DNA of 64,000 bases from Escherichia coli. GTDB taxonomy: Bacteria; Pseudomonadota; Gammaproteobacteria; Enterobacterales; Enterobacteriaceae. Positions 9,485 through 61,165 of the stretch are shown here, in pieces. The notes beneath the pieces were generated by a model. That model saw only the letters and a program-made list of their open reading frames with translations. It was not told the origin of the DNA and did no database searches. Position 1 is the stretch's first letter, and each line of letters begins with the position of its first letter. The stretch lies in the NCBI RefSeq assembly GCF_044324875.1, contig NZ_CP172185.1; one strand, written 5' to 3'. Position numbers and translations under genes: made by a program.

Positions 9485-10729
9485 TTAATTACGCAGGGCG
9501 CTATTTGCCAGACGATCGTCTTCTGCCTGGCAAGCTGCCGCAGTGAATAGCACGTCAGTTGAAGAGTTCAGCGCGGTTTCGCAAGAGTCCTGCAATACGC
9601 CGATGATAAAGCCGACGGCAACCACCTGCATGGCGATATCGTTCGAAATACCGAACATATTACAGGCCAGTGGGATCAGCAGCAAAGACCCCCCCGCCAC
9701 GCCGGATGCGCCACAGGCACACAGAGAAGCCACTACGCTCAACAGCAGCGCTGTGGGCAGATCGACCGGAATACCCAGCGTATTAACCGCAGCCAGCGTC
9801 AACACGGTAATGGTGATTGCTGCGCCCGCCATATTGATGGTGGCTCCCAGCGGAATAGAAACGGAATAGGTATCGCGATCCAGATTCAGCTTTTCACACA
9901 GCGCCATATTCACCGGAATGTTCGCTGCAGAGCTGCGGGTGAAGAAGGCATACACACCGCTTTCACGCAGGCACAGCAGCACCAGCGGGAACGGGTTACG
10001 ACGAATTTTCCACCACACCAGCAATGGGTTAACCACCAGCGCCACCAGTAACATACAGCCAACCAGCACGACCAGCAGTTGCGCGTAGCCCCACAGTGTG
10101 GAGAAACCGGTGGTTGCCAGGGTAGAAGAAACCAGACCAAAAATACCGATCGGTGCGAAGCGAATGACCAGTTTCACCATAAAGGTGACGGCATTCGACA
10201 TATCGTTGACCAGGTTTTTGGTGGTCTCGTTACCGTGACGCAGTGCGAAACCGAGGCCAATTGCCCACACCAGAATCCCGATGTAGTTACCTTTCAGCAG
10301 CGCGTCGATGGGGTTGGAAACCATGCTCATTACCAGCCCGCGCATCACTTCGACAATGCCTGACGGCGGCGAAATATCACCCGCGCTACTGGACAAGTGC
10401 AGGGTAGAAGGGAAGGCAAAGCTGAAGACTACTGCGGCCAGAGCAGCAGAGAAGGTGCCCAGTAGATAGAGGAACAAAATAGGACGGATATTGGTTTTCT
10501 GCCCGTGCTGGTGGTTAGCAATAGACGCCATTACCAGCATCAACACCAGGATGGGGGCAACGGCTTTCAGTGCGCCGACGAACAAAGTACCTAACAGACC
10601 AACAGCTTCCGCCGCGGGTTTTGAGATCCATGCCAGAAGAATCCCCAGAACAAGGCCGACCAGGATTTGTTTTACCAGGCTGCCATGAGCCAGACGCCGG
10701 AATAGCCCCGGTGAACGTTGCGTAGTCAT
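9485..10729 (-). CDS. sstT: Na+-coupled serine/threonine transporter SstT
   Basis: Track ORF 414 aa [34 protein letters not shown]...; DAACS family. Confidence 0.9.
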
Positions 10730-10973
10730 TTTTCGATCCTTTCATTGTGTTGTCGCACATCCCTGGTGCGTTCTGTCGACGCATCTTTCAGGATGTAACA
10801 AAGTGTTTGCAAGGTCGAGTATAAGGAAAGTTACAGCTTCGGGAAGCGAAAAATGCTGGATTTTAAAGAGAGGTCATATTTTGCAACTTAATGGTTACAT
10901 TTATTTGACATAAAAATAAAGCCAACGTGCGGCTTCCAGACTGATGACAACGTCAAAAAAGTACTCGGTCAGT

Positions 10974-10999
10974 CCCCTCTCCCCGGAAGGGAGAGGGAG
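10974..10999. other. Stable GC hairpin ~50 nt downstream of alx stop (possible terminator or RNA end-protecting element)
   Basis: CCTCTCCCC-GGAA-GGGAGAGG perfect 8-9 bp stem with GGAA loop. Confidence 0.4.
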
Positions 11000-11050
11000 A
11001 AAACGGTGCTCATGTTGATGACAGGGTACACGGCTTAGGCAGATTAAAAA

Positions 11051-12016
11051 TCATCCAACCCGCTGCTTATCATGCCGATAATTCACCCAGGCGTTGATAA
11101 TAAACGTCATCACCAGAATGCCAAACACCACGCCCAGCGAGACGGCGATTGGAATATGGTAGAAGTCGACAATCAGCATCTTGATACCGATAAACACCAG
11201 AATCACCGCCAGGCCATATTTGAGCATCGAGAAACGTTCTGCTACGCCCGCCAGCAGGAAATACATCGCACGCAGGCCGAGGATCGCAAACAGGTTTGAG
11301 GTCAGCACAATAAACGGATCGGTGGTCACGGCGAAGATAGCCGGAATGCTATCCACGGCGAAAATCACGTCGCTCAATTCCACCAGAATCAGCACCAGCA
11401 TCAGCGGCGTGGCATACAGCAAGCCATTCTTACGCACAAAGAAATGCTCGTTGTCGATGGTGTCGGTCATGCGCAAATGACCGCGCAGCCAGCGCACCAG
11501 CGGCTTGTCGCCAATGCCTGATTCATCTTCATGGGCCAGCGCCATCTTCACGCCGGTAAACAGCAGGAAGGCACCGAAGATATACAGGATCCAGTCGAAC
11601 TGCGAAATCAGCCAACTGCCAGTGAAGATCATGATGGTACGCAGAACAATCGCCCCGAGTACGCCATACACCAGCACGCGCCGTTGTAACGCCGCCGGAA
11701 CAGAGAAATAGCTGAACAACATCAGCCAGACAAAGACGTTATCGACCGCCAGCGATTTCTCAATCAGATAACCTGTGAGAAAGGCCAGTGCCTGTGGATC
11801 GGCAACGGCGCGACCTTCGGTTTGCACCAGATACCACCAGAAAGCGGCGTTAAACAGTAACGACAGCGTCACCCAGACCAGCGACCAGGCCGCAGCCTGT
11901 TTCATGGTCATGGCATGTGCCCCACGACGCCCCTGCAACAACAGGTCGATAGCCAGCATAATGGCGACAACAACAGCGAATCCGCCCCATAGCAACGGCG
12001 TGCCGACAGTATTCAT
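11051..12016 (-). CDS. alx: TerC-family membrane protein Alx
   Basis: Track ORF 321 aa [32 protein letters not shown]... Confidence 0.9.
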
Positions 12017-12240
12017 AGAAGTTCCTTACACATAAAAAAACGGCCAACGTCGGAAGACGTCAGCCGCTGCTTTTTATGCATAGACCTCGCCTTCCGGCAA
12101 GGTCTCACTTACAACAAAAAAGGAATACGTCTGCGTATTCCTTTCGGGTTGCCCGGTGACCGGATGTGGTTTTGCACACATCGTAATGACGATCGACCGG
12201 CAATGAAGTTACTCCCCTTTGCAGGTAACAAAGTATGACA
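12017..12240 (-). promoter_or_regulatory. alx leader: yybP-ykoY-type (Mn2+/alkaline-pH responsive) riboswitch with two terminator-like hairpins
   Basis: Minus-strand RNA contains AAAGGGGAGUAAC (12211-12223), hairpin GGAAUACGCAGACGUAUUCC + U6 (12121-12142), and hairpin ACGUCUUCCGACGU + GGCCGUUUUUUUAUG immediately before the alx AUG (12034-12061). Confidence 0.7.
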
Positions 12241-12298
12241 GACCATTCAGTCAGTCAATGGTCTGTTACATACCTTTTACATTGTTTTACTTTGGCAA

Positions 12299-48929: not shown

Positions 48930-49058
48930 TAGGCCGGATAAGGCGTTCACGCCGCATCCGGCAATCAACGCCTGATGCGACGCTCGCGCGTCTTATCAGG
49001 CCTACAACTGTCGTTGACATGTAGCCGGATAAGGCGTTTACGCCGCATCCGGCAAAAT
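48930..49058. repeat. BIME: three REP palindromes in alternating orientation between uppP and cca
   Basis: GTAGGCCGGATAAGGCGTTCACGCCGCATCCGGCAATC / GCCTGATGCGACGCTCGCGCGTCTTATCAGGCCTAC / GTAGCCGGATAAGGCGTTTACGCCGCATCCGGCAAAAT. Confidence 0.8.
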
Positions 49059-56877: not shown

Positions 56878-56956
56878 CCGGAAAGCGGTTCACAGATCTC
56901 GCTTCGAACCTGGCAGGCCTATTGACGCTGTTTTTTTTCAACCTAAAGTAAAGGAA

Positions 56957-57100
56957 CAAGGGTGAGGGAGGATTTCTCCCCCCTCTGATTGGCTGTTAAT
57001 AAGCTGCGAAACTTACGAGTAACAACACAATCAGTATGATGACCAGCTTCATCATAACCCTTTCCTTATACAAGGCCCCTTCTTCGGGAGGGGCTTTCCC
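56957..57100 (+). ncRNA. sibE: Sib-family antisense sRNA (antitoxin), hldE-proximal copy; ends approximate
   Basis: Promoter TTGACG(56922)-N16-TAAAGT(56944); terminator GCCCCUUC-UUCG-GGAGGGGC + UUU at ~57076-57100; fully overlaps the opposite-strand ibs ORF; symbol assigned by position, from memory. Confidence 0.55.
56996..57055 (-). CDS. ibsE: Ibs-family 19-aa hydrophobic type I toxin peptide (MMKLVIILIVLLLVSFAAY)
   Basis: Reverse-strand ATGATGAAGCTGGTCATCATACTGATTGTGTTGTTACTCGTAAGTTTCGCAGCTTATTAA; too short for the ORF track; which ibs paralog is a positional guess. Confidence 0.65.
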   Translation of the reverse strand: MMKLVIILIVLLLVSFAAY

Positions 57101-57332
57101 GTTTCAGCCCCTTGCTGACTCCCCGATTGTTGATGAGCGCCAGACCCCGCGCAATGCTTTCCCTGATGCAGTTTTGCCTTCCCCGAGCCGTCACGCAAAA
57201 TGCTGCAACAGCCTGATCATTTGCACCTTTTAGCGGAACGCAGATATAAAAAATCCCCGGCTTTTTGGGCCAGGGATGTGGGATAGAGAAACCTTCTTGA
57301 CGCTGATTTTTTTTCAACCTAAAGTAAAGGAA

Positions 57333-57478
57333 CAAGGGTAAGGGAGGATTTCTCCCCCCTCTGAATTGGTTGTTAATAAGCCTGGAAACTTACTAGTAAC
57401 AACACAATCAGTATGATGACGAGCTTCATCATAACCCTTTCCTTCTATAAGGCCCCTTCTTCGGGAGGGGCTTTCCCG
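57333..57478 (+). ncRNA. sibD: Sib-family antisense sRNA (antitoxin), yqiK-proximal copy; ends approximate
   Basis: Promoter TTGACG(57297)-N17-TAAAGT(57320); same UUCG-loop terminator at ~57452-57478; symbol assigned by position, from memory. Confidence 0.55.
57373..57432 (-). CDS. ibsD: Ibs-family 19-aa hydrophobic type I toxin peptide (MMKLVIILIVLLLVSFQAY)
   Basis: Reverse-strand ATGATGAAGCTCGTCATCATACTGATTGTGTTGTTACTAGTAAGTTTCCAGGCTTATTAA; differs from copy 1 at residue 17 (A vs Q) and by synonymous changes. Confidence 0.65.
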   Translation of the reverse strand: MMKLVIILIVLLLVSFQAY

Positions 57479-60904: not shown

Positions 60905-61165
60905 AGTGAACCCGCTTATTCTCAGGGCGGGGCGAAATTCCCCACCGGCGGTAAATCAACTCAGTTGAAAGCCCGCGAGCGCTTTGGGTGCGAACTCAAA
61001 GGACAGCAGATCCGGTGTAATTCCGGGGCCGACGGTTAGAGTCCGGATGGGAGAGAGTAACGATTCTGTCGGGCATGGACCCGCTCACGTTATTTTGGCT
61101 ATATGCCGCCACTCCTAAGACTGCCCTGATTCTGGTAACCATAATTTTAGTGAGGTTTTTTTACC
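60905..61165 (+). promoter_or_regulatory. FMN riboswitch (RFN element) leader of ribB
   Basis: Conserved RFN segments AGGGCGGGGCGAAATTCCCCACCGGCGGTAAA ... AGCCCGCGAGCGC ... GGACAGCAGATCCGGTGTAATTCCGGGGCCGACGGTTAGAGTCCGGATGGGAGAGAG upstream of ribB ATG. Confidence 0.8.

Follow-up and report, generated by a model that had tools for sequence, protein, structure and literature searches.

A perfect hairpin between alx and sstT of Escherichia coli as the probable deletion scar of a BoxC repeat pair

Introduction

What is the perfect, GC-rich hairpin that lies between the genes alx and sstT in the chromosome of an Escherichia coli strain, and does it serve either of its neighbors? A first-pass annotation of this DNA had described a GC hairpin after alx and had suggested that it may be an RNA 3'-end stabiliser or a protein-binding element rather than a terminator. 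Here, we address the question in a window of 64,000 nucleotides (RefSeq assembly GCF_044324875.1, contig NZ_CP172185.1), a term by which we mean the whole stretch of DNA that was analysed, with positions counted from its first letter. In our reading, to which we would give a probability of roughly 0.8, the hairpin is the deletion scar of a palindromic pair of BoxC units (PIT elements, catalogued as TM_ECO 12 and 13), carried passively and without a selected function. The papers on PIT elements are reportedly Hoyne et al. 2000 and Hoyne & Maher 2002.

It should be noted from the start that, going by the tables and the figure legend of PMC4666352 that deal with this locus, the BoxC / PIT / TM_ECO family, both of its units between alx and sstT and the collapse of the pair to a stem-loop are already published. 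What is added here is minor, namely two independent collapse junctions, of which the one in the window is the rare one, and the frequencies of four allele classes in a much larger set of genomes.

Results

The spacer is bounded by the coding sequence of alx upstream (open reading frame at 11051-12016, minus strand) and that of sstT downstream (open reading frame at 9485-10729, minus strand). Positions 10975-10997 within it hold a perfect 9-bp inverted repeat with arms CCCTCTCCC (10975-10983) and GGGAGAGGG (10989-10997), in which 7 of the 9 pairs are G-C and the plus-strand loop is the pentanucleotide CGGAA (10984-10988). The hairpin reported after alx is, in other words, real and was correctly placed, although its arms had been given as CCTCTCCCC and GGGAGAGG around a GGAA loop, a register that is one base off and makes the arms unequal. 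The distances, put at about 50 nt past the alx stop and about 240 nt before the sstT start, were right as well, the exact values being 53 nt from the alx stop and 245 nt from the end of the hairpin to the sstT start. Read on the minus strand, that is, in the sense of alx, the element consists of the C-block CCCTCTCCC (10997-10989), the loop UUCCG (10988-10984) and the G-block GGGAGAGGG (10983-10975). As RNA, this strand folds into a stem of 10 pairs, nine of them Watson-Crick and one U-G, with the loop UCC and a free energy of -20.5 kcal/mol (z-score of -2.5 relative to dinucleotide shuffles).

Perfect hairpins of at least 9 bp are frequent in the 64-kb window, with 16 loci as compared to approximately 2 expected by chance. 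When the BoxC pattern of C-block, loop and G-block is used instead, 10975-10997 is the sole match in the window, and the pattern is found in 0 of 100 shuffles; the hairpin exceeds chance expectation. No Rfam family was matched at the hairpin, either with the region scanned at E up to 10 or with the whole window scanned at gathering scores.

A full-text literature search with the two G-blocks led to PMC4666352 and PMC5100583. According to Holder et al. 2015 (NAR, PMC4666352), the motif is BoxC, first described at envM (Bergler et al. 1992), found anew by Hoyne and Maher under the name of PIT elements, and called TM_ECO in their own paper. An intact unit has the form CCCTCNCCC-loop-GGGNGAGGG-N3-GGGNGAGGG, and the founding BoxC upstream of fabI/envM, which is TM_ECO no. 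9 in Table 1 of PMC4666352, has the matching sequence pattern. In K-12 MG1655, the alx-sstT spacer is 398 bp long versus 321 bp in the window, and in the alignment the 77 nt by which K-12 is longer fill out two BoxC units in inverted orientation. The first of these, unit 12, reads CCCTCTCCC-TTCCA-GGGAGAGGG-TCG-GGGTGAGGG, while unit 13 is the reverse complement of CCCTCGCCCC-GTTT-GGGGAGAGGG-TTA-GGGTGAGGGG, and the pair folds as a 105-nt super-hairpin of -62.6 kcal/mol (z-score of -6.4). The hairpin in the window aligns to K-12 positions 3239599-3239698, which is where TM_ECO 12 and 13 are found: Table 1 of PMC4666352 places unit 12 at 3239599-3239634 and unit 13 at 3239698-3239662, with sequences identical to those of the K-12 pair, and Table S2 of the same paper names alx and sstT as the flanking genes. 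Under another name, the same K-12 sequences are nos. 34 and 35 among the G-quadruplex candidates of Kaplan et al. 2016, both between alx and sstT, where they belong to the HPG1/HPG2 motifs that switch between G-quadruplex, hairpin and duplex (PMC5100583). The K-12 element is a dispersed repeat, found 17 times in the median E. coli genome, and its pattern occurs in many copies in other bacteria; the published spread is 3,610 copies in 262 proteobacterial genomes, with none in Salmonella. This membership in a dispersed, intergenic repeat family had been missed by the first-pass annotation.

How much of the repeat is left? Of the BoxC / PIT / TM_ECO pattern CCCTCNCCC N3-6 GGGNGAGGG N3 GGGNGAGGG, the hairpin contains the first half, i.e. 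the C-block (CCCTCTCCC), a short loop within the 3-6-nt range and the complementary G-block (GGGAGAGGG), at the very position of TM_ECO 12/13. Unlike an intact unit, it has neither the second loop nor the third block GGGNGAGGG, and no match to the full pattern, with second 3-nt loop and third block included, exists in the window. In particular, the third block GGGTGAGGG is gone from the hairpin, and the only GGGTGAGGG in the window, at 56960, is unrelated. With the third block lost, the remnant can form neither of the structures proposed for intact units, an intrastrand triplex and a G-quadruplex. Namely, where a G-quadruplex takes four runs of at least three Gs, the G-rich strand here has only the two in GGGG-AGA-GGGG, and, in contrast to the HPG1/HPG2 motifs of K-12, the hairpin state alone remains.

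Relative to pair-bearing strains, the window allele is the pair minus 77 nt, plus one substitution. It retains the C-block and the TTCC loop of unit 12 together with the outer flank of unit 13, and is thus a truncated chimera of the two units. The deletion junction lies in an 11-nt stretch, CGGGGAGAGGG (10975-10985, minus strand), which is imperfectly common to the G-blocks of unit 12 (CAGGGAGAGGG) and unit 13 (CGGGGCGAGGG), and next to it lies the outer flank of the former unit 13, G-GACTGACC (10966-10974, minus strand), which is conserved beside unit 13 in pair-bearing strains. On the basis of the alignment to K-12, TUM9757 and other strains, and of Table 1 of PMC4666352, we annotate 10975-10997 (unstranded) as a 23-nt hairpin standing alone, which is what is left of the collapsed BoxC / PIT / TM_ECO 12+13 pair.

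A second collapsed allele, the common, B2-type one, has another junction. Here, exactly 76 nt were lost between two perfect 9-nt copies of CCCTCTCCC in direct orientation, and the loop that stayed is the AAAA of unit 13, on an imperfect stem of -19 kcal/mol. This allele is carried, among others, by UPEC 26-1, 2016C-3878, ATCC 11775 and NU14 (this junction was compared up to a conserved anchor, with a 1-nt indel further downstream). The loop varies by allele, being TTCC, AAAA, AAAC or AAAT, and TUM9757 has the full pair, with an AAAA loop, on window-like flanks. What the two collapsed alleles have kept of the pair is complementary. Neither can have given rise to the other, and both go back to the pair, each by one deletion.

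In order to place these alleles in the species, we took a census of 5,426 complete E. coli genomes, the counts of which are approximate and come from BLAST summary counts. The full BoxC pair is found in about 2,560-2,600 genomes, a TRIP1d-type spacer of 615 bp in place of the BoxC part and the terminator-like site discussed below in about 1,660, the 76-nt collapse with its imperfect hairpin in about 1,158, and the perfect hairpin of the window type in just three (GF43, N3 and VCSW7). Given three exact copies in 5,426 genomes at a polymorphic locus, the window-type hairpin is very rare, and its position is a hot spot of repeat turnover. As for the 615-bp spacer, roughly 285 nt at its core are a repeat that recurs about three times per genome and corresponds to the published TRIP1d site, which lies 96 bp downstream of alx and 255 bp upstream of sstT (PMC10888264). 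TRIP1d is like the hairpin in being an alternative occupant of the alx-sstT spacer, but it is an unrelated and longer repeat, which displaces the BoxC part and the terminator-like site altogether. In E. coli 2017.18.02CC, the 615-bp spacer (801-1415 of the retrieved locus) corresponds to window 10915-11050. In this class of about 1,660 genomes, even the last alx codons are replaced.

Turning to transcription, the hairpin has the GC-rich stem-loop of an intrinsic terminator and lacks the U-rich tract 0-2 nt after the stem. The nearest T6 run on the minus strand is at 10960-10955, 14 nt beyond the stem, and the plus strand goes on with AGAAAACGG, which bears out the remark that an adjacent U-tract is absent. 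A consensus terminator scan skipped the hairpin and called only a weaker site at 10936-10918. This predicted terminator-like site, GAAGCCGCACGTTGGCTTT followed by ATTTTTATG (10936-10909, minus strand), begins 39 nt beyond the hairpin, has a weak stem (-7.5 kcal/mol) and is conserved in the pair and hairpin alleles. In the K-12 Term-seq data of Adams et al. 2021, no 3' end was found from the alx stop to just before sstT (3239546-3239922), be it near the element or at the predicted terminator, and the locus has no listed Rho termination region; as a negative result this is weak, since K-12 has the pair allele and little alx is expressed in that study's conditions. Close to the locus, 3' ends are found solely at 3238482, in the alx leader, and at 3239923, 21 nt before sstT. 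The K-12 sstT transcription start has been mapped at -83 (Mendoza-Vargas et al. 2009, supplement), which is approximately window 10812. The hairpin lies about 165 nt upstream of this start and, consequently, outside the corresponding sstT 5' untranslated region. What is more, PIT elements have neither promoter nor terminator activity according to Hoyne & Maher 2002, as that work is cited in PMC4666352, and the earlier BoxC/PIT studies found no link to gene class or distance and no function (PMC4666352). In this sense, the earlier judgement that the hairpin is not a classic intrinsic terminator was sound, both as regards the missing U-tract and as regards the reported inactivity of the parent elements.

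Discussion

Taken together with the published description of the family, these comparisons suggest the following course of events. The ancestral alx-sstT spacer contained two inverted BoxC units, foldable into a super-hairpin of about 105 nt. In the lineage of the window, the 77 nt between short, imperfect direct repeats inside both units are missing, and the remainder, in which the C-block and loop from unit 12 now abut the outer edge of unit 13, makes up the perfect 9-bp stem-loop. The loss presumably came about through replication slippage or through processing across the folded palindrome, and the remnant has most likely been a passive passenger of the 3' untranslated region of alx, with the weak terminator-like hairpin downstream of it. 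While the deletion itself can be read directly from the aligned sequences, its mechanism is what we infer from them. Holder et al. described such losses as a 'palindrome effect', in which part of both units disappears and a stable stem-loop is left, and suggested replication slippage or the processing of stalled forks as the cause (PMC4666352). In the legend of Supplementary Figure S6C of that paper, TM_ECO 12/13 are named as an example and, as far as this legend goes, the hairpin studied here is a product of the published effect at 12/13. In our opinion, the hairpin is thus most likely a scar without a role of its own in the sequence downstream of alx. That said, there are two points against this explanation. 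The window allele needs one base change beyond the 77-nt deletion, which makes the exact route tentative, and the two independent collapses, through different junctions, each kept a stem of about -19 to -20.5 kcal/mol at 53 nt from the alx stop, which may point to more than a pure scar.

The latter point leads directly to the possibility of a function. Namely, retention of the stem in both collapses could reflect selection for a hairpin and not the geometry of the deletions alone, and the hairpin might then be kept either as a barrier to 3' exonucleases or as an insulator between alx, which is induced at alkaline pH, and the sstT promoter; we consider such retention by selection quite improbable. 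A closely related account, and the main rival to a scar, in which the element is an RNA 3'-end stabiliser whose stem-loop blocks 3'-to-5' exonucleases as REP sequences do, and thereby sets the 3' end and the half-life of the alx mRNA, strikes us as unlikely. The idea is plausible because of the likeness to the REP/BIME stabilisers of mRNA 3' ends, which are also intergenic, GC-rich stem-loops of a dispersed repeat family located in 3' untranslated regions. It draws further on the stability of the sense-strand stem-loop (-20 kcal/mol), on its location between the alx stop and the weak terminator-like site and on the stable stem shared by both collapsed alleles. In contrast to REP/BIME, however, the hairpin is unrelated in sequence to the REP consensus, and BoxC is not known to stabilise transcripts. 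Against the stabiliser stand, moreover, the four allele classes at the locus with only three of 5,426 genomes having the exact hairpin, the approximately 1,660 genomes without any BoxC-derived sequence here, the lack of a mapped 3' end in this stretch of the K-12 spacer, where K-12 represents the pair allele, and the failure of earlier BoxC/PIT studies to find a function. The suggestion of a stabiliser or a protein-binding element thus turns out to be unsupported: the element is not conserved across strains and no K-12 3' end maps near it, which is the very outcome that its author had named as speaking against it. Membership in the REP family was also considered as such, and was rejected on reading the hairpin sequence.

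Could the hairpin instead act as a non-canonical terminator or as a pause site of RNA polymerase, insulating the sstT promoter from alx read-through? The GC-rich stem and the T6 run 14 nt downstream would fit, and Kaplan et al. 2016 raised, as a speculation, a terminator role for some of their G-quadruplex motifs, namely those between genes that share an operon (PMC5100583), but with two G-runs only there is no G-quadruplex in the window allele, and the U-tract 0-2 nt from the stem is missing, which is why the consensus scan passes over it. As PIT elements showed no terminator activity, and K-12, in its pair allele, has neither a recorded Term-seq 3' end nor a Rho termination region at the locus, we regard this account as very unlikely. 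One may also turn the polarity around and take the short hairpin to be ancestral, with the BoxC pairs arising by insertion or expansion. The strains ATCC 11775 and NU14, which we take to belong to phylogroup B2, carry a single hairpin, and this phylogroup is commonly regarded as an early branch of E. coli. However, the single-hairpin alleles keep complementary parts of the pair, with the loop of unit 12 in one and that of unit 13 in the other, so that no path leads from one to the other; two full consensus units would have to come from a single insertion step; TUM9757 has the pair allele on window-like flanks; and TM_ECO is reported to be absent from Salmonella, so that the C- and G-blocks are themselves repeat-derived. 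The reverse polarity is, for these reasons, highly improbable. Least credible of all, and to our mind extremely improbable, is a protein-binding hairpin, be it a CsrA-type site with GGA in the loop or a DNA-binding site. The plus-strand loop is indeed CGGAA, but this strand is antisense to both alx and sstT, and the loop on the transcribed strand, UUCCG, contains no GGA. The loop sequence, furthermore, differs among alleles, and about 165 nt separate the hairpin from the mapped sstT start downstream of it. As a candidate in its own right, the CsrA-type site was rejected by strand, its GGA loop being antisense only.

If, as we believe, the hairpin is a deletion scar, the annotation it calls for is that of a BoxC/TM_ECO remnant and not that of a candidate regulatory RNA element. 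More generally, the locus exhibits the decay of palindromic repeat pairs in several states, in that the full pair, two hairpins that collapsed independently and a replacement by TRIP1d all occur in the 5,426 genomes, and this pattern of four alleles supports the published tie of these motifs to local genome instability. The natural allele series between alx and sstT is, in addition, usable for asking whether such scars affect neighboring transcripts. Were the hairpin retained by selection after all, BoxC pairs would be a source of new RNA-stabilising elements.

Additional observations

Several features outside the scope of the question deserve a brief mention. The alx leader contains an 11-bp perfect stem, AAAGGAATACG/CGTATTCCTTT, with a T-run behind it (12119-12144, minus strand). 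The Term-seq 3' end recorded in K-12 at 3238482 (-98 of alx) falls on this hairpin, presumably the attenuator of the leader. In the literature, the leader as a whole (12017-12298, minus strand) is described as a pH-responsive element of the yybP-ykoY type; none of the Rfam families, not even RF00080, was matched there at the gathering score or at E up to 10, also when the leader was scanned alone. The 3' end at K-12 3239923 (approximately window 10750, minus strand) is a strong one, seen by Term-seq in two LB growth phases and located inside the sstT 5' untranslated region, downstream of the -83 start, and could reflect attenuation or processing. The gene sstT is a known target of GcvB. Elsewhere in the window, Rfam matches at gathering score are found at 56922-57070, 57297-57447, 60914-61062, 48932-49002 and 36524-36596, and comprise two SIB RNAs, an FMN riboswitch, the REP-derived naRNA4 and one tRNA.

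Among the matches listed for the TM_ECO pattern in other bacteria, more than 100 copies come from Archangium sp. MAG JAEUJS01, where those listed nearly always read CCCTCTCCCTCGGGGAGAGGG-N3-4-GGGTGAGGG and are followed by a semi-conserved AGCRCATCCTC, whereas in Contendobacter MAG JARSSO01 the pattern occurs, again among the matches listed, as inverted pairs. Back in the window, the 16 loci with perfect hairpins of at least 9 bp include a REP-like one at 16821-16841, GCCGGATGC-GTC-GCATCCGGC, which is unrelated to the hairpin between alx and sstT. Finally, a pyrimidine-rich hairpin at 24528-24557 (plus strand) contains CCCTCTCCC without being a BoxC unit; it has a 10-bp stem with arms TTTTCCCTCT and AGAGGGAAAA and a 10-nt loop, is followed by a T6 run about 15 nt later, and may be a terminator.
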